Virus record (IMG/VR): IMGVR_UViG_3300048895_000111
Location: 1 to 26,798 of that record
Reading direction: 5' to 3' (one strand)
Origin: a virus
Taxonomy: Duplodnaviria; Caudoviricetes
Length of the DNA: 26,798 nt
Under the pieces are notes generated by a model. That model was not told the origin of the DNA. It did not search any database and saw nothing but the letters and a program-made list of their open reading frames with translations. This document shows, piece by piece, positions 1,025 through 24,962 of this stretch. The stretch's first letter is position 1; the number at the start of each line of letters is the position of its first letter. The position numbers and the translations under genes were made by a program.

Positions 1025-3277
1025 CTACTCTTCGGGAGAATCTTCTGGAATCGGGACATCTGTGAGAGCCTCTTCGGCGACCAGAGCGACCGCCTTCTCG
1101 ATCCGCTTCAGGCTCGCCATGACGTCCTCCAGGCTGACCGTCTCCGCTGGCTTGTCCCCCTCCGCGGGGAAGGGGTTGTCCTCGAAGTGGTCACCGCACT
1201 CGGCGCAGAAACCGCCCTCCGGGTTCAGCACGTGGACGTGCTCCGGGCCGGTCAGAATCTGCGCGTCGCCGCCCGCGCTGGCCGCGACCGGCCACGCGGG
1301 AGTGGGGACGAGGTGGAGGCCGACCAGCGTGCGGCCACGCCCAGCGGGCCACAGTTCCACGCTCGGGGCGGACGCAGCGGCACGGAGCAGGGCGTCCTTG
1401 TCCACACCGGGCATCACGACCCCGCTGATGGCGAGGCCGAAGGGAGTTTCCCAGGCACGGACCATCGCGAAGATCGTGTTCGCGTCGTCGCGGTGGCGAC
1501 CCACCTCCAGCACACCCACACCCTGACGGGCGAGGTTGGCATCGATGTGCCGACCACCGAGGGTGAGCGCACCCGGCTGGAACGTGGTGCCGTCGGACAG
1601 TGTGATCAACTGCCCCGTGTGGAAGCCCCGGTGCCGAGAGTCCACGTCGCCGGGGTACTGGAAGCACGCGCCCATGTCGCTCCGGTGGCACACGCCCTTC
1701 GGCGCGGCGATGCCGTAGATGCGGCGGAGGCCGTTGGCGTCCTCGTCGCCGACGGAGAGCGGCACCAACTTCTTCGGCTTGAAGTCGGCGAAGTACTCAG
1801 CCGGGAGGGACGTCGAGCCAGCCGCAGCGGTGACCGCCTCGACGTCCTCCCCGGTGAGCGCCTCTGGCCGGACCGCCGTCTCCATGCCGTCGACCCGCTC
1901 GAGAGCGCTGATGGACCCGACCACCACCCCGTCGTGGTCGTTGTTGTCCGGGTCCCAGATGATCGGGATGGGGAGCAGTTCGTCGTCCCACTGGAGCGAC
2001 CCGTACTTCAGCGTACGGACGTCGCCGGTGTAGATGCCCTCGAACGTCACCGGGCCGGACACGCCGTAGCCGTCCTCGTCCAGGGTGAGGCGGGCGTTGC
2101 TGAACGCCGCCGTGTCGACGATCGCGACGTGGCGCGGGCGGATCTCGGCGTTGAGGTAGATCTCGTTCGCCTCCGCCATCTTCGCAGCCATCGTCTCCTC
2201 GTCGTCGTCCGGGCTGGGCTCCAGCGCGGCCAACTTCTCGGCCACCTCCGGGTGGAGGTCGTGCTTGATGGACACCGCCACCGCACCCTCACGGAGGAGT
2301 TCCTGCACGCGGGCCACCAGAGCCTGAGTGCGGGGGTCCTCGGACAGGGACAGGGTGCCCGTGCCGATGATGCCTGCGGTCTTCTTCTCGTCAGCCACGG
2401 GGGGCTCCTCTGTCTCTTCGGTGGTCCAGCCGTCCGGAAGATCGACATCACACTTGAGGGCGCTCCTCCGCTTCTTGATGTGAGCCTTGGCCTTGGCCGG
2501 GTCACTCGCCCGGCCAATGGCCTGGATCGCGTTCTTCAGGTCAGCGCAGTCGCCGATCGGGAACGACCCGTCCGGGAGCGCCCTGCCGTCCTTCGCCATC
2601 GCCTTCCGGGCTTCAGGCGAGTAGTCCTTGAAGTCCACGCCGTCACCGTCCTTGTCGTTCCGACGCTCCTTGCGCTCGGGGCGCGTACCGTCCGCATCGA
2701 AGGGGCAGTCGGGCCAGTCCTCGTACTTGTCGACGATCCGCTTGTAGATCGCGCAGATCTTGCTCTTGATCGCCTGCTTCTCGGATGGGGATGCACCCAC
2801 CATCCTGTCGATACCGTGCCCCCCGGACACGGCCGACATTCCACGGGGGACGATGTGCAAGCCACCGTCGTTGACATCGGTGTAAGGGAGTTTGTACGCC
2901 TGTCGGGTGTTGAGGTCCTGCGAGGTGTCGATGAAGAAGAACGCCTGACGGAGTTTTGCAGTGTCGAGCGACCCGTCGTCTTTCGTGGCCCACTCGAACA
3001 CTCGGTTCGTTGCAGCCTCGCCGTCCCACGGCTCGTCACGGCCACCGATGGGGAGTTCGAGGCTCCCACCGACCTTGAACTCGCCGGCATCCACCTCCAG
3101 CCACTCCATCAACGCTCTCAGGGAGCGTGGGCCGGGGAGCCTGCCCTGCTTCAGACGGCTGAACGCGGCCTGATGGATGCCCACCTCCTCCGCAACCTCG
3201 CTCCAGGACAGTGGGACGCCGGACCCTCGCGTCTCACGGGCGTCCTCAAGGGCTGCAAGAAGAGCGTAGGCGTCCAT
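1025..3277 (-). CDS. Capsid maturation protease, multidomain (N-terminal XRE-like HTH, PWDG...YKLP domain, ALPDGSFPI/DUF6582-like domain)
   Basis: 750 aa between portal and capsid genes. Motifs LSWSEVAEEVGIHQAAFSRLKQG, RDEPWDGEAA...AYKLPYTDV...IVPRG, ALPDGSFPI...DLKNAIQAIGRA and the C-terminal RIYGIAA...CH region typical of actinophage head proteases. Confidence 0.75.
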   Translation of the reverse strand: MDAYALLAALEDARETRGSGVPLSWSEVAEEVGIHQAAFSRLKQGRLPGPRSLRALMEWLEVDAGEFKVGGSLELPIGGRDEPWDGEAATNRVFEWATKDDGSLDTAKLRQAFFFIDTSQDLNTRQAYKLPYTDVNDGGLHIVPRGMSAVSGGHGIDRMVGASPSEKQAIKSKICAIYKRIVDKYEDWPDCPFDADGTRPERKERRNDKDGDGVDFKDYSPEARKAMAKDGRALPDGSFPIGDCADLKNAIQAIGRASDPAKAKAHIKKRRSALKCDVDLPDGWTTEETEEPPVADEKKTAGIIGTGTLSLSEDPRTQALVARVQELLREGAVAVSIKHDLHPEVAEKLAALEPSPDDDEETMAAKMAEANEIYLNAEIRPRHVAIVDTAAFSNARLTLDEDGYGVSGPVTFEGIYTGDVRTLKYGSLQWDDELLPIPIIWDPDNNDHDGVVVGSISALERVDGMETAVRPEALTGEDVEAVTAAAGSTSLPAEYFADFKPKKLVPLSVGDEDANGLRRIYGIAAPKGVCHRSDMGACFQYPGDVDSRHRGFHTGQLITLSDGTTFQPGALTLGGRHIDANLARQGVGVLEVGRHRDDANTIFAMVRAWETPFGLAISGVVMPGVDKDALLRAAASAPSVELWPAGRGRTLVGLHLVPTPAWPVAASAGGDAQILTGPEHVHVLNPEGGFCAECGDHFEDNPFPAEGDKPAETVSLEDVMASLKRIEKAVALVAEEALTDVPIPEDSPEE

Positions 3278-5786: not shown

Positions 5787-7148
5787 TCAGAACCGACCCA
5801 TTCTCACAGAACTCAGGGCCGAGGGGAGCCCGACCGGCCCCGGCGTTGACACACTACTCCCTCGGACGACGGCTGTATGCCTTGACCTCAAGTACCAGCA
5901 CGCCCAGACCATCGCGTCCAGCCGGTCGGGCGACGCGGGAGTCTCGCCCGGCACCCACTCGCACAACTCGTCGATCAACTTCCCGCTCGTCGTCACCATG
6001 TGGACGATCTGCTCGCTGACCTCCCAGAGTAGGGCAATCGGCTCGGCCCGCGTCTTCTTGTTCTTCGTGGCGTTGACCGTGTGAATCGGCAGCGCGTGCC
6101 CAGCGGAGTTGAGCACCTCTTTCACCATCTGCCCGCCCTGATTGATCTCGGCGATCACGACGGCGTCGTACGTGTCGGCGGCATCCTTCACCCGCGCCGC
6201 CCAGACGTGCGGGCTGGCCTCCTCCACCGAGCGGTCGTCAAGGACATACATGTGACCGCTCGCGTCTTGGCCGACCACGACGATTCCGCAGGTCCCCTGC
6301 CCGGTCGGCGGGTCCACCCCCACGACGATCCTGTCACAGATCGCAGCCACGGCGGAGGCTGGCCCGGTGACCTTCGACCGCTCAATGTCGTTCGCCTTCC
6401 ACAGCGCACCCTCCACATCCTCGATGACCTCGCCCAGGACCTCCTGGCGGTAGAGCCGAGTTCCGTAGTAGAGCGTGTTCAGCGTGTGCAGCCAGTCCAG
6501 GGGGATGTACTTGTTGTCCATCGACGTGCCGTGCCTGACCACGACCCGTGGGTCGGCCTCCCACTTCTTGATCAGGTCGTGGGGCCGGGGCGTGCTGCTC
6601 ACCAGCCACCGTCGGTCCCCACGTCGACGTGACAGCGACGCCTGCTGGAACGCCTGAGTGGCGCACGGATTGGCGAAGAACTCCTCAAAGACGTCGAAGT
6701 CCACGTTCGTCAGAGCACGGAGCCTGTCCACGTCTTTCTCGGTGGGTGTGCCCACGATCCACACGCGACTCCCGTTCGGGTAGCGCACACACGCGCCACC
6801 GGGCGCAGACGGGAGCCACTTCGCGACTCCCTTCGACAGAGTCAGCAGTCCGTTGGGTCCATCCACGGCGGCGGCAATACCGTCGCCCAGAGTAGGAGCA
6901 ATGACCCTCGCCCTGATGTTCTTCGTCTCGCTCAGAGTCGTGTGGAGTTCCCACATCGCCGCGAACGACTTCCCAGCACCGCGCCCTGCCATCATGGCGA
7001 AACCGAGCGCGTCGGCGTTCTCCCCCGGGTCGCGGGCAGAGCCGGGGGGAATCCTCCATGGGGGGATCTGATGGTGCTGGAGAATGACTCTACCCGCTAG
7101 GCGCTCCCGTAGTCCTTCCGCGAGGGCGGTGGACGTCAAGGAGGCCAT
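5787..7148 (-). CDS. terL: Terminase large subunit
   Basis: Walker A AGRGAGKS, Walker B-like DVFEEF, STTPRP coupling motif, RQEVLGE, nuclease VGVDPP and SPDRLDAMVW. Confidence 0.95.
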   Translation of the reverse strand: MASLTSTALAEGLRERLAGRVILQHHQIPPWRIPPGSARDPGENADALGFAMMAGRGAGKSFAAMWELHTTLSETKNIRARVIAPTLGDGIAAAVDGPNGLLTLSKGVAKWLPSAPGGACVRYPNGSRVWIVGTPTEKDVDRLRALTNVDFDVFEEFFANPCATQAFQQASLSRRRGDRRWLVSSTPRPHDLIKKWEADPRVVVRHGTSMDNKYIPLDWLHTLNTLYYGTRLYRQEVLGEVIEDVEGALWKANDIERSKVTGPASAVAAICDRIVVGVDPPTGQGTCGIVVVGQDASGHMYVLDDRSVEEASPHVWAARVKDAADTYDAVVIAEINQGGQMVKEVLNSAGHALPIHTVNATKNKKTRAEPIALLWEVSEQIVHMVTTSGKLIDELCEWVPGETPASPDRLDAMVWACWYLRSRHTAVVRGSSVSTPGPVGLPSALSSVRMGRF

Positions 7149-7394: not shown

Positions 7395-7591
7395 GACTTC
7401 TCCTCTTGTCGTTTCCGGTAGAAGCGGCTGCGAATCTCCACGGGAGCATCCGACCAGGGCTCAGCATACACCCGAGGGAATCTCCATGCGCGTGTCTCGG
7501 CTATGCGTGCGGAGAATGCCATGTGCGATCTCAAAAGCCGGTGAAGGGGACGTCGGTCGTCTCCGCGGCGGATCCCGGGGGCCTGCGCGGC

Positions 7592-7620
7592 TTGCCTAGC
7601 GCGTGGGCGTGTGCTAAGAT
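7592..7620 (+). promoter_or_regulatory. SigA/HrdB-like promoter TTGCCT-N17-TAAGAT with extended -10 TG
   Basis: Near-consensus hexamers with exact 17-bp spacer; followed by TAGGCAAGC like the other promoter copies; AAAGGA RBS before ATG 7668. Confidence 0.75.
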
Positions 7621-7667
7621 TGCCGTAGGCAAGCCACCAGGGCCTGCCACTAGCAAAGGAAACCGCT

Positions 7668-8015
7668 ATGCCCGCAAAATCCGCCGCCCCCGCCCCCGCC
7701 GCGCACGTTGGCCCGTACCGCACGCACGCGGGCTGGCACGCCGCGCACGCCGCCGCCGTGGGTGCCAACCGTGGCAACCCCACCGCGCGCGCCGCGTGCA
7801 CGGTTGCCACGCACCTTGCGTGGCGTGCCCCCGCCGCCGCCGTGGCGTGGCACAAGGGCACTAACGCCGCCATGCTGGCCCACTGCGCCACGCTGGGGAT
7901 TTCCACCGGCATGCCCGTGCACGCCGCTATGGCCCTTGTGGTGGCAAGCCTGCCCGCTGGCCCCACCACAACCGCGCTGGCCAAGGAAACCCGCGCGCTG
8001 GCCCCGGCCAAGTAG
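7668..8015 (+). CDS. Ala/His-rich THLAW-motif protein, paralogue of 9712-10155, encoded in GA/TC-depleted DNA
   Basis: Own promoter and RBS; 20/50 ungapped identity with the core of the 9712 protein. Confidence 0.8.
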   Translation: MPAKSAAPAPAAHVGPYRTHAGWHAAHAAAVGANRGNPTARAACTVATHLAWRAPAAAVAWHKGTNAAMLAHCATLGISTGMPVHAAMALVVASLPAGPTTTALAKETRALAPAK

Positions 8016-8021
8016 CCCGCC

Positions 8022-8050
8022 GCCCCCCGCCGCCGCCAGCGGCGGGGGGC
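8022..8050 (+). terminator. 12-bp GC hairpin after stop codon (terminator or RNA stability hairpin)
   Basis: GCCCCCCGCCGC-cgcca-GCGGCGGGGGGC; no U-tract. Confidence 0.5.
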
Positions 8051-8071
8051 CACCGGCAGGAGCGACAAACC

Positions 8072-8136
8072 GCCAGCGCAGCACGGTCCGGGGTGCGACC
8101 CCCCGGCTGGCACGAGGCCCCGCAACGGGCGGGGCC
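8072..8136 (+). ncRNA. tRNA-like T-loop leader element, copy 1 (divergent), plus downstream hairpin
   Basis: GCCAG...CCGGGG-TGCGACC-CCCCGG-CTGGC-acga-GGCCCCGC/GCGGGGCC; same architecture as copies 2-4 with compensatory changes. Confidence 0.6.
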
Positions 8137-8157
8137 ACGAGGGCGAAGGAGCCCAGC

Positions 8158-8382
8158 ATGACAAGCAAGATCCACGGCACGCGCCGCGACACGGCGTCCG
8201 TGTCGACCACGACCCGGACGACGCACTACGTCAGCGTCGACCTCTCCGACCTGCTGGCGCAGTTCGACGTGACCGACGAGGTGGTCCTGATGGTGGCAAC
8301 GCCGTCCGGCCGCGACCAGCGGGTCGCCGTCCGCCGCAACCTGCTGGCCCCGGCCCGCAACGACGAGGGATGGGCCGTCTGA
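8158..8382 (+). CDS. Hypothetical protein (MTSKIHGTRR...)
   Basis: GAAGGAG RBS before ATG 8158; typical codon usage; TGATG coupling to the next gene. Confidence 0.75.
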   Translation: MTSKIHGTRRDTASVSTTTRTTHYVSVDLSDLLAQFDVTDEVVLMVATPSGRDQRVAVRRNLLAPARNDEGWAV

Positions 8383-8594
8383 TGACCATCCACATCCACG
8401 CGGGCGGCACGCTTCGCACGCTCTGCGACCAGCCGCTCGTGCTCGGGGACGTCTCGTGGGAGGACGCCGCGAAGGCGGAGTGCACGGTCTGCGCCTCCTA
8501 CTTCGGGCGGCGGGTCCCGCAGTACGGACCGGAGTGGGTCTCCCACGTCCAGTCCGGCGGCACCGTCCTGGACGGGAACCTCCTGGTCGGCTGA
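8382..8594 (+). CDS. Hypothetical protein, possibly Zn-binding (H...C...CxxC)
   Basis: TGATG overlap start; MTIHIHAGG...TLC...ECTVC. Confidence 0.7.
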   Translation: MTIHIHAGGTLRTLCDQPLVLGDVSWEDAAKAECTVCASYFGRRVPQYGPEWVSHVQSGGTVLDGNLLVG

Positions 8595-8610
8595 CCGGCA
8601 GGAGCGACAA

Positions 8611-8644
8611 GGGCCTCGTCCCCCTCGGGGGGCGGGGCTCTTTC
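8611..8644 (+). terminator. Intrinsic terminator
   Basis: GC-rich stem with G-U pairs (GGGCCTCGTCCCC...GGGGGGCGGGGCTC) followed by TTT, right after the 8382-8594 stop. Confidence 0.65.
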
Positions 8645-8658
8645 GCGCGCCCGGCCCG

Positions 8659-8970
8659 CGATGATCCTCGTCACGGCGGAGCCGACGATGATCCTCGTCT
8701 CGGCGGCGCAGCCGCACGACGATCGTCGCCGACGATCCTCCGGCCCCCCGGTCCAAGCGGACGATCCTCGTCCTCCGGCGGGCCGGGGTGGGGCGGCGTC
8801 TCGCCGGACGATCCTCGTCGGCGGGCGGCGTGACGAGGATCGTCCGGCGGCTCCGCGGCCGACGGCCTGCTCCGGCGGGCCTCCGCCCGGACGATCGTCC
8901 TCGGCGCAGCGGCGTCGCCGCGGAGCCGCAGATCCCGGACAGGACGGCGTCTCTCGCCCGCAGCGATCGT
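8659..8970. repeat. Non-coding GACGATC(C/G)TCGTC repeat block (10 GATC sites) including a perfect 18-bp inverted repeat (8802-8819 / 8832-8849)
   Basis: GATC at 8663, 8690, 8721, 8734, 8763, 8810, 8838, 8893, 8931 and 8965; overlapping ORFs are low-complexity and Arg/Pro-rich. Confidence 0.85.
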
Positions 8971-9030
8971 GGCGGCGGTGCCCGCGGACGGTTCGTCGGC
9001 GAGGCCGCTCCACCGCGACGCCGCGCCCCG

Positions 9031-9190
9031 TCGTAAGCCGACTCGTAAGCCGACTCGCGCCGTCGTACCGACGTCGTAAGCCGACTCCTGTACAGGTACA
9101 CAGGTACGCGTCCTACGCCTCAATCCGTCCTTCTGCAAATCCAGAACAGGCTCTTGCAGAACGCCGCACGCTAGGCGCATCGTAAGCCGA
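9031..9190 (+). repeat. TCGTAAGCCGAC repeats (9031, 9043, 9074; 11/12 copy at 9180)
   Basis: Three exact 12-mers, two of them tandem, plus one 11-nt match. Confidence 0.85.
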
Positions 9191-9249
9191 GTTCAGGGCT
9201 GACATTTGAGCCTAGCAGCACGTACCCGCAAGACGTCCCCGCGGACTCA

Positions 9250-9484
9250 TGCGGGTACGGGTACACGGGTACGTTCGTCAGTTGGGTTGTACCCGCATGA
9301 CGCGAGACGATAGGAAGGATCGGGGTCCAGAACCGAAAACCTGAACAATGGCGTGTCATTGGAATGTCTTTAGATACCCCTCCGGCTAGCAAGAAGACTA
9401 CTAGCCACGCGCTAGGCTACGACTTCTTTCATCCAATGCGGGTACAACCCAACTGACGAACGTACCCGTGTACCCGTACCCGCA
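9250..9484. repeat. Perfect 49-bp inverted repeat (9250-9298 / 9436-9484) built from CGGGTAC/GTACCCG units, 137-bp spacer
   Basis: Reverse complement checked base by base; extra GTACCCGCAAGACG direct copies at 9222 and 9476, and TGCGGGTAC at 9501. Confidence 0.9.
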
Positions 9485-9535
9485 AGACGATCACCCGCCC
9501 TGCGGGTACGCCCGAAAAGACCCTCCTCCAACCCC

Positions 9536-9711: not shown

Positions 9712-10155
9712 ATGACCACCAGCACGAAGACCCAGAAGTCCACCCCGGCTCCGGCCAAGCGCACCGCCGCGAAGCCGAAGGCGGAGACCCCCGCCGAGGC
9801 CCCCGCCGCCAAGAAGGCGACGGTCCCGGCCAAGCCCGCGTACCGCGACGTGGAGGGCTTCGCCGAGGCCCTGAAGTCGGCCAAGGCGGCGGCCAAGGGG
9901 AACACGGACGTCACCCAGGCGCTCCAGTTGGTCACCCACCTCGCGTGGAAGACCCCCGGCGGAAACGTCGGCTGGGCCAAGGGGACCACGCCGAACGTCG
10001 TGGCCTACGCCGACGACATGGCGATCCCGGAGGGCACGTCCATCCCGGACGCGCTGGCCGCTGCGCTCGCGGCCGCGGACAAGGGTGCGGCCGACAAGCC
10101 GCAGAAGGACGCGCTCTCCGTCCTCACCAAGGTGGTCAAGGCGCACGCTGCCTGA
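9712..10155 (+). CDS. THLAW-motif protein with Lys/Ala/Pro-rich (histone-like) N-terminal tail
   Basis: Strong RBS and strongly GC3-biased codons; first gene after tandem promoters. Confidence 0.85.
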   Translation: MTTSTKTQKSTPAPAKRTAAKPKAETPAEAPAAKKATVPAKPAYRDVEGFAEALKSAKAAAKGNTDVTQALQLVTHLAWKTPGGNVGWAKGTTPNVVAYADDMAIPEGTSIPDALAAALAAADKGAADKPQKDALSVLTKVVKAHAA

Positions 10156-10203: not shown

Positions 10204-10269
10204 GCCCGACTGGCAGACACCCGGAGTTCGAGTCCCGGGCGGGCGCTAGGCGAGAGATTGGCTCTCGCC
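10204..10269 (+). ncRNA. tRNA-like T-loop leader element, copy 2, plus downstream hairpin
   Basis: GCCCG-actggcagaca-CCCGGaG-TTCGAGT-CCCGGG-CGGGC, then GGCGAGAG/CTCTCGCC, then RBS. Confidence 0.7.
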
Positions 10270-10284
10270 ACGAAGGAGGAACAG

Positions 10285-10684: not shown

Positions 10685-10749
10685 GCCCGAGCGGAACACT
10701 CCCAGGTTCAAGTCCTGGGCGGGCACGAGGCCGGGGATCAGCCCCAGCC
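10685..10749 (+). ncRNA. tRNA-like T-loop leader element, copy 3, plus downstream hairpin
   Basis: GCCCG-agcggaacact-CCCAGG-TTCAAGT-CCTGGG-CGGGC-acga-hairpin, then RBS. Confidence 0.7.
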
Positions 10750-10768
10750 AGCACAGAGGAGAACGAGA

Positions 10769-11278
10769 ATGGAACAGCAGTTCAGCATCGGCGAGTGGGT
10801 CGAGCGGATCTTCGACGGCAAGGTCGGCGTGGTGAAGAGGGTCCAGCCGGGGGTCGGAGACGCCGAGGGCGACTTCTACTTCTACGTGGACCTGGACCCG
10901 CAGCGGAGGGTCAAGGCCGCGGACGAAGACCTCTGGGCCGGAACCACCGGCGCGTGGCGAACCCACTTCCGCGTGCACGCGCACGTGGAGACCAGCAGCC
11001 GCGACTGCGACGGGGACTACTCCGGAGGCCACGTCGACGACATGACCATCCAGGAGCGATGCGACCAGTTCGGCGACCTGCACTTCAAGGAGCGAGTCCT
11101 GGGCAACGTGGTCAGCCTCCACGGGGAGGGGACCCTCGAGGTCTCGCCCACCGGGCTCCACTGGCACGAGCAGACGGAGGAGGGCTACCGCCGCGCCGAC
11201 GTCACGTGGTGCGAGGACGACTGCCCCGACGAGCGCCCGTGGCAGCGCGACCACCGCGCAGAGAGCATGGGGTACTGA
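10769..11278 (+). CDS. Hypothetical protein (SH3/KOW-like N-terminus)
   Basis: GAGGAG RBS; FSIGEWVERIFDGKVGVVKRV. Confidence 0.75.
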   Translation: MEQQFSIGEWVERIFDGKVGVVKRVQPGVGDAEGDFYFYVDLDPQRRVKAADEDLWAGTTGAWRTHFRVHAHVETSSRDCDGDYSGGHVDDMTIQERCDQFGDLHFKERVLGNVVSLHGEGTLEVSPTGLHWHEQTEEGYRRADVTWCEDDCPDERPWQRDHRAESMGY

Positions 11279-11633: not shown

Positions 11634-11698
11634 GCCCGAGCGGCACACTCCGGAGTTCGAGTCTCCGGCGGGCACGAGGCGAGGGACCAGCCCCCGCC
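11634..11698 (+). ncRNA. tRNA-like T-loop leader element, copy 4, plus downstream hairpin
   Basis: GCCCG-agcggcacact-CCGGAG-TTCGAGT-CTCCGG-CGGGC-acga-hairpin, then RBS. Confidence 0.7.
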
Positions 11699-11717
11699 AG
11701 CACAGGAAGGAAAGTTG

Positions 11718-11903
11718 ATGGCACGCACGAAGGACAGCGCGACCACCGAACTCGCGGTGGCCCACGCCGCCTTGATGTTCATTGCCGCGAAGGGGTTGAC
11801 CGATGAGTTCTACGGCAGCGGCGCGCTCACCGGAAGACTCTGTACCGAGAGGTGCAGCCACACCGACGACCTGCTCGCCGTGAAGGAGACGACCAATGGC
11901 TGA
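11718..11903 (+). CDS. Hypothetical protein (MARTKDS...)
   Basis: AGGAAGGA RBS before ATG 11718; overlaps the next start. Confidence 0.7.
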   Translation: MARTKDSATTELAVAHAALMFIAAKGLTDEFYGSGALTGRLCTERCSHTDDLLAVKETTNG

Positions 11904-13996: not shown

Positions 13997-14026
13997 CCTA
14001 GCGATGTCTAACCTGCTAGGCTAGCC
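13991..14026. promoter_or_regulatory. Palindromic promoter/operator GGCTAGCCTAGC-N12-GCTAGGCTAGCC
   Basis: Perfect 12-bp inverted arms; gives TAGCCT-N17-TAGGCT on both strands. Confidence 0.7.
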
Positions 14027-19058: not shown

Positions 19059-20491
19059 GGGAGTACACGAGCGCAGTGAGAGAGCCACTGATCGATCCCC
19101 TGGATGCGTTGCAACTCGCGCTGGACGTTGCCGCCGTTCCGCACCACCCGCTGGACGAGCGGCTGCACGACTACCAGAAGGACTCGGTGGCCCATCTCCA
19201 CGCACACCCTCGGGCGGGGTTGTTCCTGGTCCCCGGTCTCGGCAAGACGGCGATCGTCCTGTCTGCTCTGACGGAGGTCCATCTGCCTGCGCTGGTCATC
19301 GCGCCGAAGCGGGTGACCGAAGAGGTGTGGCCCGAGGAGATCGCCAAGTGGAGACCCGACCTCACCTACTCGCTGGTGCGCGGCAACCCCGAGCAGCGGA
19401 AGCAGCGACTCACCGAGGACACCGACCTAATCACACGGGACACCTTCGGCGGTGACCTCGTCAGCCGGAAGACGTCGAGGTACAACACCATCATCATCGA
19501 CGAGTTGTCGGGCTTCAAGAACCGGGCGTCGCAGCGGTGGAAGCACGCGAACCGGCTGACGAAGAACATGCCCTACGTCTGGGGCCTGACCGGCACGCCC
19601 ACGCCGAACAGCCTGCTCGACCTCTGGCCTCAGGTGTATCTCCTGGACAGGGGCGCACGGCTCGAGCGCACGCTCACCGCGTACCGGACGAAGTACTTCG
19701 CGCCGGGTGGGCGTCTGCCCAACGGGATCATCACCAACTGGACGCTCCGGCCTCACGCCGAGGGCATCATCCAGAACGTGATCAAGGATCTGTGCCTGTC
19801 GATCGACCAGAGCCACGCGACGTACCCCGTGAAGAACGACGTGTACCACCGCTTCGATCTGCCGACGAAGGCACGCAAGGCGTACGACGACATGAACCGG
19901 CACTTCGTCGCTGAGGTGGGGGAGACCCTCGCCAGCGTGGAGCACGCCGCCGCGAAGACGAACAAGTTGAGCCAGATCGCCAGCGGCTTCATGTATCACA
20001 GCGGACTGGTGGGTGCGGAGGAGTCGGACGAAGGCGACATCACACACCACCACATGATCCGCATGGAGATGCTCCAGGAGATCCTGGCCGACGCGCAGGG
20101 TGCGCCCGCTCTAGTGTTCTATCGCTTCAACGAGGACCGGCGCAGGCTGCTCCACCTAGACGGGGCGGTGGACATCAAGACGCCACACGCCATGGATCGC
20201 TGGAACCGGGGCAACATCCCCATCCTCATCGCGCACCCCGCGAGCGCAGGCCACGGGCTCAACCTTCAACGGGGCGGTAGCCTACTCATCTGGTACGCGA
20301 TGGACTGGTCCAGCGAACTCTACACCCAAGGGATCGGTCGTCTGGTGCGGCAGGGTCAGCCGTCTCCTGCCGTTGCTGTCCACCACATCATCGCACGCGA
20401 TACGGTGGACGAGCAGGTGCTGGATGTGGTGCAGGGTAGGATCACCAGGCAGGACGCGCTGCTCAAGGTGTTGGAACGAGGGAAGCGGTGA
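19055..20491 (+). CDS. SNF2-family (SF2) DNA helicase
   Basis: LHDYQ, GLGKT, IIIDELS, GLTGTP, HPASAGHGLNLQ, QGIGRLVRQGQ. Confidence 0.92.
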   Translation: MREYTSAVREPLIDPLDALQLALDVAAVPHHPLDERLHDYQKDSVAHLHAHPRAGLFLVPGLGKTAIVLSALTEVHLPALVIAPKRVTEEVWPEEIAKWRPDLTYSLVRGNPEQRKQRLTEDTDLITRDTFGGDLVSRKTSRYNTIIIDELSGFKNRASQRWKHANRLTKNMPYVWGLTGTPTPNSLLDLWPQVYLLDRGARLERTLTAYRTKYFAPGGRLPNGIITNWTLRPHAEGIIQNVIKDLCLSIDQSHATYPVKNDVYHRFDLPTKARKAYDDMNRHFVAEVGETLASVEHAAAKTNKLSQIASGFMYHSGLVGAEESDEGDITHHHMIRMEMLQEILADAQGAPALVFYRFNEDRRRLLHLDGAVDIKTPHAMDRWNRGNIPILIAHPASAGHGLNLQRGGSLLIWYAMDWSSELYTQGIGRLVRQGQPSPAVAVHHIIARDTVDEQVLDVVQGRITRQDALLKVLERGKR

Positions 20492-23694: not shown

Positions 23695-24160
23695 CAGGCT
23701 GGAGTTCGTTGCGGAGTTGACCCTGCTGGGGTTCAGCCCCGGTAAGATCGCGGAGAGGCTAGGCGTCAGCGAGCGGGTCGTCAAGAGCGATCTCGAGCAG
23801 GTCCGCATCAAGTGGCAGGAGAACCGCCAGAAGTCCTACACGCAGTTCATCGAAGAGGAGTTGGCGACCCAGCGGATGCTGATGCAGGCGTTGGAGGTGG
23901 GCATCTCGCAGGGGTCGTGGAAGCACGTTGAGACGGCCCTCAAGATCACCGAGCGCCGTGCCCGCGTGATCGGCCTGGACCACACCGACCGCATGGAGCA
24001 GGCGCGGGTAGAGATCGAGGCGCGGCAACTCGACATGATCAGCCACGCACTCGAACGTGTGATGGACGTGCTGGGGCTGAACGACGAGCAGCGAGAACTA
24101 GCCACGAGCACATTGATTCTAGAACTAGAGGAAGGCGACATTGAGATCATCGAAGAGTGA
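23684..24160 (+). CDS. HTH DNA-binding protein (possible terminase small subunit)
   Basis: GFSPGKIAERLGVSERVVKSDL HTH, then KITERRARVIGLD. Confidence 0.7.
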   Translation: MSSDRLEFVAELTLLGFSPGKIAERLGVSERVVKSDLEQVRIKWQENRQKSYTQFIEEELATQRMLMQALEVGISQGSWKHVETALKITERRARVIGLDHTDRMEQARVEIEARQLDMISHALERVMDVLGLNDEQRELATSTLILELEEGDIEIIEE

Positions 24161-24962
24161 GCCACTGGTCTACGTACCGACGTACAAGCGGGACGACCTA
24201 CTGACACTGGAGAGCCTGAAGGGAACCAAGATCCTGGAGCGGACCGCGCTGGTCGTACACCCGGATGACGTATCAAGATACGCTTCCCACGGGGTACAGA
24301 TCGTGCCCTGCCCCGCGCAGGGAGAACTCGGTGCCGTACGCCGGTGGTTGATGGAGAACCACGAGGGCGACTACATGGTGCAGATGGACGACGACCTGCG
24401 GTTCGCGGTACGCCGGAAGGACGACCCCACGAAGTTCCGCCAACCGGAGAGCCCGGACGAGGTTGACGAGATGTTCGACCGAATCTTCGCGCTGCTGCGG
24501 GAGGTGCCCCTCGTGGGAGTACGGCAGCGGGGCGGAGCCAACCGCTCTACACCGCCCGTCGAGGTTGCGACTCGCCAGTGTATGCTCCACGCACTGGACC
24601 TACGAGCGGCGAGGGAGAACGGGTGGGTCTACAAGTCATGCGTCTTCGAGGACTTCGACTACACGCTCCAGGTGTTGACCTCGGGATACGAGAACGCCGT
24701 CCTGAACACGCACGTCATCGACCAACGAGAAGCGCAGGCACCCGGAGGGGTTGAGGGCTACCGGACGAACGACCTCATGGCCCAGGATGCTCTGGAACTA
24801 GCAATGAACTTCCCGGGCTTCGTGCGTGTCGTGGAGAAGGCAGGCTGGCGAGGCATGGAGTCCCGCACAGACGTCAACGTTCAGTGGAAGAAGGCTCTCT
24901 CGTCCGCCGGGGCGAAGACCATTCTGGACGTTGGGTTCTACGAAGACTTGTGGTGGTCGTGA
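24141..24962 (+). CDS. GT-A fold glycosyltransferase, TET-associated/GREB1-like (probably DNA-modifying)
   Basis: VYVPTYKR, RRWLME, VQMDDDL, FEDFDYTLQVL..GY, APGG; located in the replication region. Confidence 0.7.
   Translation: MRSSKSEPLVYVPTYKRDDLLTLESLKGTKILERTALVVHPDDVSRYASHGVQIVPCPAQGELGAVRRWLMENHEGDYMVQMDDDLRFAVRRKDDPTKFRQPESPDEVDEMFDRIFALLREVPLVGVRQRGGANRSTPPVEVATRQCMLHALDLRAARENGWVYKSCVFEDFDYTLQVLTSGYENAVLNTHVIDQREAQAPGGVEGYRTNDLMAQDALELAMNFPGFVRVVEKAGWRGMESRTDVNVQWKKALSSAGAKTILDVGFYEDLWWS

Follow-up and report, generated by a model that had tools for sequence, protein, structure and literature searches.

The DNA of phages T7 and T5 that enters the cell first avoids restriction sites, and mRNAs that are free of a toxin's motif also exist. 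Phage CAjan is said to carry a 7-deazaguanine modification at GA and GGC, and DarT reportedly ADP-ribosylates at TNTC.

In phages M6, ViI and phiW-14, T is hypermodified at TG and TC steps (available part of PMC6449724). The available part of PMC8989533 gives the pathway from 5-hmdU without a sequence context, no sequence-context data were found in that of PMC13326640, and neither PMC6449724 nor PMC8989533, as far as their available text goes, describes a modification-free gene in M6-type phages.

How does the present locus compare with these systems? It lies in a 26.8-kb phage fragment (the whole of which we call the window), in which one predicted transcription unit, comprising gene A, has lost nearly all of its GA and TC steps. 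The likeness to T7, T5 and the toxin-motif-free mRNAs is that of a privileged early segment or message without a motif that an enzyme reads; the differences are that the motif here is a dinucleotide, that a single transcription unit is concerned, that the protein has been rewritten while an unpurged twin (gene B) is kept, and that the alleles run from TC-free to TC-saturated. Moreover, only the island itself is motif-free, the rest of what may be a terminal repeat (7427-7574 and 8060-9279) having normal or high GA/TC. A dinucleotide-context mark of the CAjan type would give a symmetric GA/TC purge, template-strand GA being critical; however, GGC/GCC is 2.4-fold enriched in the island (67 vs 27.8 expected) and the enzymes that were found act on pyrimidines, so that a G mark at GA and GGC, one of the precedents cited in the original prediction, is disfavoured. 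No DpdA/Que-type (preQ0) Pfam family was found in the part of the ORFs that was scanned. A literature search at title and abstract level, with subscription journals largely outside it, found no published description of a dinucleotide-purged phage gene.

The purged island and its surroundings

In the window, genes for terminase, portal and a capsid-region protein run leftward from 7394, and small genes, a helicase, a primase and a TAGT-family glycosyltransferase run rightward from 7668 (Table 1). Gene A comes first among the rightward genes, heading the arm of small genes on the other side from the terminase operon. The GenBank phage records searched gave no close match (35% for the best terminase), and we infer an actinobacterial host from the phages with the closest versions of the modification genes described below, together with the GC content. 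The sequencing runs containing the stretch are soil, root and rhizosphere metagenomes, with no RNA dataset listed among them.

Two further features of the window may be mentioned here. The 750-aa capsid-region protein (1025-3277) has a weak N-terminal helix-turn-helix (HTH) match (Pfam E 0.007), and is possibly a fusion or has a mis-set start. A leader element, its copies 60-80% alike, is repeated before early genes (8088-8137, 10221-10270, 10685-10775 and 11634-11724); its GGTTCRAGTCC-like core presumably resembles a tRNA T-arm, and the element is a possible RNA processing or regulatory signal.

Table 1. Features of the window and their positions
Feature	Position	Strand	Remarks
Terminase large subunit	5787..7148	-	near head of leftward structural operon
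Possible direct terminal repeat, about 1.9 kb	7427..9279	.	holds gene A and two small genes; suggested, weakly, by contig depth
GA/TC-purged island	7575..8059	.	one predicted transcription unit; 6 GA/TC vs 73.5 expected
Putative host-type promoter	7592..7620	+	read by eye; -35 TTGCCT (7592-7597), 17 bp, extended -10 TG-n-TAAGAT (7612-7620; TAAGAT at 7615-7620)
Putative ribosome-binding site	7655..7660	+	AAAGGA, from sequence; holds survivor 7659
Gene A	7668..8015	+	115 aa, TAG stop; predicted five-helix domain
GC-rich hairpin after stop	8015..8057	+	inverted repeat I15; without GA/TC or U tract
Conserved 16-nt motif ending the island	8053..8068	+	second copy at 8595; GA-free recoding in G004
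52-nt inverted repeat (98%)	9247..9487	.	137-nt spacer; precedes gene B; contig ends fall in it
Gene B, unpurged paralogue of A	9712..10155	+	34% over 68 aa; Lys/Ala/Pro-rich N-terminal tail
TAGT-family glycosyltransferase	24141..24962	+	candidate writer of mark; PF20691 E 3.8e-15; phrog_842

The island contains exactly six GA or TC steps (at 7618, 7659, 7680, 7898, 7902 and 7986), as the original prediction had counted by hand. If the 485 bp had the frequency seen elsewhere in the window, 73.5 would be expected, and local base composition predicts 45.2. GA/TC is the sole dinucleotide pair below half its expectation. CGA/TCG, CTC/GAG, GAC/GTC and TCA/TGA are each absent, in agreement with the earlier claim, and five of the six survivors are in TTCC or ATCC on the TC strand, the sixth being an ATCT in the putative -10 box. 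When 200-bp windows were stepped along the 26.8 kb, fewer than 20 GA/TC were found only where they overlapped the island, and the longest run without either step is 218 bp in the island, compared with at most 43 elsewhere. The borders are indeed sharp, with normal flanks; outside the island GA and TC are enriched (observed/expected, O/E, 1.34 and 1.30), including the 150 bp before the promoter. Within it, CA/TG occurs at 1.23 times and CC/GG at 1.4 times expectation, the latter leading us to reject avoidance of Rho (YC) sites as the cause.

When the protein was held fixed and codons were resampled 5000 times from 23 reference genes of the window, the gene A coding sequence had two GA vs 12.6 expected and two TC vs 11.0, values reached in none of the 5000 resamples in either case; the same null applied to the 23 reference genes gave none below p=0.04, and a null from the codon usage of nine paralogue genes agreed with the first. 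The non-coding leader and hairpin are purged as well. The deficit therefore persists after sliding-window, composition and protein-fixed controls, and within the window is confined to the island. As a fixed protein does not abolish it, it is the nucleic acid that is under selection, and the missing Asp, Glu and Phe come in addition. That selection on nucleic-acid sequence overrode protein sequence, as originally proposed, is borne out both by these nulls and by the substitution patterns between alleles described below.

The gene A protein has no Asp, one Glu and no Phe, compared with eight Asp, five Glu and one Phe in the product of gene B, which sits 2 kb past gene A behind the 52-nt inverted repeat; both the 13 acidic residues of the paralogue and the particular aligned replacements quoted earlier were recovered in the A/B alignment. 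A predicted structure (pLDDT 90) has five helices, and Tyr17, Arg18, His49, Leu50, Trp52 and Pro55 are invariant in 66 purged-type sequences, from which it appears that the fold survived recoding. Searches for relatives gave no Pfam or PHROG family above the cut-off for gene A, no A or B homologues among GenBank phages, no A relatives in GTDB genomes and no Atlas match for B. Fold searches with A returned nothing usable from Foldseek (best E 0.7 against PDB and 2.8 against BFVD), the best VIA-align match being to a designed helical bundle (Z 7.3, rmsd 2.8, 78 aligned), and the predicted fold gives no pointer to activity. As a guess, the product might bind a host reader or polymerase.

The original prediction included the promoter in the purge. 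The purge of leader, coding sequence and hairpin stands, but the promoter was recognized by eye, a sigma-70 consensus scan found no site at its threshold for it, and the promoters of ordinary (unpurged) orthologues are also GA/TC-poor: these have no GA/TC between -35 and -10, and few upstream of the start (four in 50 bp in L002, two in 47 bp in L022). The allele-specific purge is therefore mainly one of leader, coding sequence and hairpin. Promoters of the same early family occur at 14014 and 14275 in the window and in eight copies in the stretches searched of G004, a related complete genome, in which the ribosome site is a GA-free AGGGG in place of AAAGGA. The 3' segment lacks GA/TC in all four purged-type alleles of the family to which the window's allele belongs.

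Contigs covering about 7430-9279 had 1.48-2.44 times the depth of flanking pieces in 8/8 runs (in run X2, which like X1 may be the source of the window, 1.55 raw and 2.44 after deconvolution), a measure that is not copy number, from runs chosen by this stretch, in which strains sharing the segment would look alike. This is a weak hint that gene A stands first in a terminal repeat some 1.9 kb long. The 52-nt inverted repeat keeps its position, with changed sequence, in L002, G004, L049 and L052, and is a candidate signal for an origin or a terminus. In the window and several relatives, GA/TC-rich non-coding repeat tracts follow closely on the cassette (window 8654-8906; L043:17970-18110 and 19290-19650; L046:600-1200), whose repeat units are lineage-specific; they could possibly be a binding array or decoy for a TC-reading protein.

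Alleles and homologues of gene A

Ten distinct alleles at the gene A slot were read as DNA: four are purged on both strands, one is purged of TC on the coding strand only, three (L002, L022 and L024) are ordinary and two are TC-saturated on the coding strand. Three of the both-strand purges belong to one family, namely those of the window (also found in L001/L004), L003 (GA 2 vs 11.4 expected, TC 1 vs 11.3) and L023 (GA 2 vs 16.5, TC 1 vs 9.6). L013 has no TC (vs 9.3 expected) but 20 GA (vs 18.0), so that 20 TC are left on the template strand of its coding sequence; the TAG stop is kept. The L002 phage matches the window at 94.7% identity along 6.9 kb, with a gene B that is 99% identical, yet its A allele is ordinary.

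The fourth both-strand purge is in a second, distantly related family (hhalign probability 77%). G004, a complete 55.7-kb genome with a terminase 89% identical to that of the window, has 646 bp between successive GA/TC steps, where about 100 would be expected; this run holds a 138-aa gene without Asp or Glu and reaches about 150 nt past its stop. The G004 A protein has no BLAST match to that of the window at E 0.05, and is 60% identical to its nearest relative, the unpurged A of L049; its other near relatives, L050-L052, are unpurged too. Since the nearest relatives are unpurged, the purge probably arose at least twice, as judged from sequence comparison.

L049 and L052 present the mirror image of the purge (L049:4263-4667; L052:9881-10282), with 41 vs 25.7 and 38 vs 27.9 coding-strand TC, above all 5000 resamples. 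In L049 A, Val is GTC in 11/12 cases, Leu is CTC in 10/10 and Ser is TCN in 13/13, compared with 41/91, 54/119 and 63/107 in its other ORFs, and there is no general bias to C-ending codons (for Ala, 15 GCC to 20 GCG). An alternative reading of this pattern is avoidance of TG (z -4.2) and AG (z -3.5). In a further relative, G005, there is no purged gene: the slot (L046:1340-2210) is occupied by an opposite-strand 138-aa gene with a KPAS-repeat tail, flanked by GA/TC-free simple repeats (L046:1340-1650 and 2065-2210).

The purge is complement-symmetric in four of the ten alleles; TC is purged in 5/5 purged-type alleles and GA in 4/5, and there is no depletion of TG (z +1.4 to +3.9). It extends across codon junctions: G before an A-starting codon is found in 1/23, 1/21, 0/28 and 0/27 junctions of the four both-strand purged alleles vs 566/1193 in reference genes, and T-ending codons are never followed by C (window 0/11, L023 0/4, L013 0/5, G004 0/15, vs 146/421). 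Where purged alleles differ from one another, substitutions that would make a new TC are avoided (p at most 6e-4 in 5/5 pairs), as are, in the three pairs without L013, those that would make a GA (p 0.027, <2e-4 and <2e-4). The purge is thus real, selected and recurrent.

Flanking bases matter. In the three window-type islands, TTCC is spared (8 vs 8.6 expected) and ATCC partly so (4 vs 10.0), some of the survivors being homologous and so not independent, whereas the other 14 contexts have two occurrences vs about 199 expected, both in a -10 box or ribosome site. DarT, put forward in the original prediction as a second precedent, fits poorly with this, because its TNTC is kept: the island has a TTTC at 7900-7903, and the opposite strand has two more, at 7658-7661 and 7985-7988. 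G004 spares no WTCC (0 vs 9.1), and its promoter spacer, leader, ribosome site and conserved 16-nt motif are recoded relative to sister copies. In one G004 promoter copy the spacer, which precedes the presumed start, has been recoded, while three neighbouring copies keep GA; this suggests that the target is DNA and not RNA. The borders coincide with promoter and hairpin in L013 and in the four alleles purged on both strands. An attempt to look for the WTCC exemption in known T-modifiers was uninformative: M6 DNA is cut by AlwI and FokI, and ViI DNA resists AlwI, BamHI and FokI (PMC6449724, available part).

A profile of seven first-family alleles recognized 111 clusters of gene A homologues among 8000 scored candidates. 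When these and six DNA-derived rows were classed, leaving out P0155 (an apparent chimera) and P0156 (a fragment), 45 were ordinary, 46 had at most one Asp or Glu, five had two and 19 had three or more (P0148 being placed among the last by rule, although it groups with ordinary alleles). Asp plus Glu makes up 0.17% of residues in the 46 purged-type proteins vs 7.4% in the 45 ordinary ones, and Phe 0.09% vs 1.6%. The acid-containing group is still poor in Phe (0.10% vs 1.6%) and likewise in Ile (0.36% vs 1.4%), which a continued ban on coding-strand TC would predict, L013 being the one case read as DNA. In a quick tree of 100 columns, itself subject to compositional bias, purged-type rows fall on one side (69 rows, support 90), and the L013 clade of acid-containing, Phe-free proteins (nine rows, support 94) is nested in a 61-row clade (support 96) of mostly acid-free proteins. 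From this nesting, it seems probable that GA was regained in the L013 clade while TC stayed banned.

Candidate modification genes

The window ends before the region in which its relatives carry a thymidylate synthase (TS)-like gene, so the genes concerned were read only in those relatives. All three distinct relatives that cover the region (G001/G003, G004 and G005) encode a TS-like protein (dUMP-hydroxymethylase-like, TS superfamily) and HMUDK_hel (PF18723), as well as PolA and several glycosyltransferases. The TS-like protein of G001 is 33% identical to M6 gp58, sharing an RSND..WG..G.NA motif. By inference, the phage of the window also has TS and HMUDK_hel and marks TC, the TC context being drawn from the purge itself. 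The TS-like protein at L026:3990-5645 has about 250 extra C-terminal residues with no Pfam match, which, as a guess, might act as a nucleotide pyrophosphatase.

The likeness to M6, ViI and phiW-14 thus consists of TS-like and HMUDK_hel proteins in the relatives, and of TC being among the two contexts reported. There are three differences. TG is not avoided here (a matter of avoidance rather than of the mark itself); glycosyltransferases are present, while the part of the ORFs scanned (18 of G001 and 44 of G004) yielded HMUDK_hel but neither a P-loop kinase nor an amino acid:DNA transferase; and the M6 genome has no purged island. The slot after the HTH gene is variable, coding for a TAGT of 273 aa in the window and one of 333 aa in G001, a different protein with weak glycosyltransferase signals in G004 and, to judge by the N-terminus, a protein resembling that of G004 in G005. 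Three different alleles can be seen at window 24141-24962, L026:11817-12818, L041:15853-16785 and L044:15446-16582. A second TAGT follows the TS gene in G001, and none does so in G004 or G005. The context exempted from the purge differs along with the slot allele between window-type islands and G004, a contrast of two lineages: the window and G004 alone have both a purged A and the slot, G001 being without the A region and the sequences of L002, L022, L049 and L052 stopping short.

Among cultured phages, the nearest carriers are Brevibacterium phage LuckyBarnes, Glutamicibacter phage Montesquieu and the Microbacterium phages Golden and Pikmin, with TS-like, HMUDK_hel-like and (LuckyBarnes) TAGT-like proteins at 30-42% identity; they have no A or B homologue, and no GA/TC island was found in these four or in M6 (n=5). 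In Golden gene 33 (L032:24111-24450) and Pikmin gene 32 (L033:23374-23680), each a single minus-strand gene, plus-strand TG is depleted (5 vs 26.7 and 3 vs 24.1), which may result from amino-acid composition.

Explanations of the purge and their meaning

What has to be explained, then, is an established purge at the nucleic-acid level, kept up between diverged alleles in two protein lineages, with T-modification-type genes in relatives that include a complete purged genome. The reading that we prefer, and to which we give about an even chance, is that the phage spares gene A its own T mark at TC, a mark read by a protein, so that A can be expressed from incoming virion DNA. The phage would replace T with 5-hydroxymethyl-U and then glycosylate it at TC steps, the context being set by the variable glycosyltransferase slot. 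Gene A, at the head of a terminal repeat, would be read first. What disables marked DNA would be a mark-reading protein (a modification-dependent nuclease, glycosylase or silencer of the host), not a steric obstacle to the elongating polymerase, and the coding strand would matter most. The A product might then relieve or tune the block on marked DNA, with the unpurged twin B taking over this role at a later stage. Phages with ordinary or TC-saturated alleles would have a different mark or host, or would need A to be silent on marked DNA.

Why should a reader protein be invoked, when the original prediction had host RNA polymerase requiring unmarked DNA? That requirement, taken generally, is not supported, given the ordinary and TC-saturated alleles that fill the same slot and L013, in which only the coding strand is freed of TC. 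The 20 template-strand TC of L013 are the opposite of what polymerase block by a marked template T would predict, and, for a mark on T, speak for the non-template strand. Bulky C5 or major-groove groups act at initiation in vitro (available parts of PMC4838386 and PMC11550810), and did not block elongation (PMC4838386). Taken with the L013 asymmetry and the mix of alleles, this makes a direct polymerase block an unlikely reason for a purge of the whole coding sequence, and it is on this account that a mark-reading protein is placed in the mechanism. Several findings count against the preferred reading: ordinary alleles occur in close relatives, L002 included; G005 has TS, HMUDK_hel and the slot protein and yet no purged gene; five cultured phages with related genes show no island; and TG, the other M6-type context, is not depleted.

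There is a lower but appreciable chance that the threat comes from outside, from an enzyme of the host or of a competing element that attacks unmodified TC/GA (a deaminase, ADP-ribosyltransferase or nuclease, for instance, with a preference for the exposed non-template strand or marking template GA). Gene A would encode the antidote, so that only A must lose the motif, and its alleles would track host range. This would accommodate the coding-strand-only purge of L013 and its Phe-free clade, the polymorphism among near-identical phages, the flank-dependent exemption and the lack of islands in the five cultured phages; but DarT's own motif survives in the island, the remaining genome is rich in GA/TC right up to the promoter, and TC-saturated alleles would be the worst possible antidote genes.

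Could RNA be the target instead? The A message might shun UC and GA to survive sequence-specific RNases or an ADP-ribosyltransferase like CmdT, with TC-saturated alleles giving a short-lived message. The purge does coincide with the predicted transcript, the half that is always purged (UC) is on the mRNA strand, and the promoters of ordinary alleles are GA/TC-poor too. CmdT, of the host defence CmdTAC, reads GA, modifying the A of GA steps in single-stranded RNA (PMC11618068, available part). Such an activity would leave unexplained the TC purge, the 20 GA in the coding sequence of the L013 mRNA and the GA that window-type alleles keep in the ribosome-binding site, a likely CmdT target according to the same part of that source. 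Two unrelated RNA enzymes would need exactly complementary motifs, and in G004 the promoter spacer is recoded upstream of the presumed start and the GA/TC-free run extends well past the stop. We therefore regard an RNA target as quite unlikely.

It is very unlikely that GA/TC-free DNA is itself a cis element near a genome end (for packaging, ejection or the landing of a protein), with A recoded by overlap. The GA/TC-free repeats at the same position in G005, which has no purged gene, and the possible terminal repeat would suit such an element; however, short-unit repeats easily miss a given dinucleotide, the borders track promoter and hairpin in the four both-strand purged alleles and L013, and a duplex site does not explain coding-strand bias. 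Selection for an acid-free protein, or against tRNAs with GA/UC anticodons destroyed by a host enzyme, would agree with the amino acid composition of purged-type proteins, but is highly improbable and largely refuted, because the deficit persists with the protein fixed and because codon junctions, leader and hairpin are purged (the purge of junctions and of non-coding DNA leading us to reject tRNA-anticodon targeting). Local mutational bias (TC-specific deamination) or drift in a gene that is Ala-rich, in an island of 75% GC where Ile is ATT and some Val and Leu are GTT and CTT, is scarcely credible, since C>T does not account for the majority of replacements (Val GTG, Leu CTG, GAC>GCC, TGA>TAG) and since the codon null, the sharp borders with normal flanks, the exclusion of new GA/TC between alleles and the recurrence in a second lineage all refute it.

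We also put forward, as a speculation that is rather unlikely to be right, the idea that gene A is a sequence-encoded sensor of DNA modification state, in which coding-strand TC density would set the strength of silencing by the mark or its reader. In the same speculative vein, selection might have tuned the alleles, with twin B as the constant counterpart, so that those without TC on both strands or just on the coding strand are immune and that of L049 is hypersensitive. If this were true, the dinucleotide content of a coding sequence would be an epigenetic on/off switch in phages, and islands would reveal the sequence context of an enzyme from the genome alone.

Selection on a dinucleotide has been so strong here that, more than once and in one genomic slot, it has rid a protein of Asp, Glu and Phe. 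This bears on how transcription by the host machinery begins in phages whose DNA is heavily modified, and on which host proteins read the marks, the transcriptional role of modified bases having been called underexplored (PMC11550810, available part). Nature has supplied the controls in one gene of 115-140 aa, as TC-free, coding-strand-only, ordinary and TC-saturated alleles beside a constant paralogue, and this allele series may expose a new modification reader or anti-defence protein.
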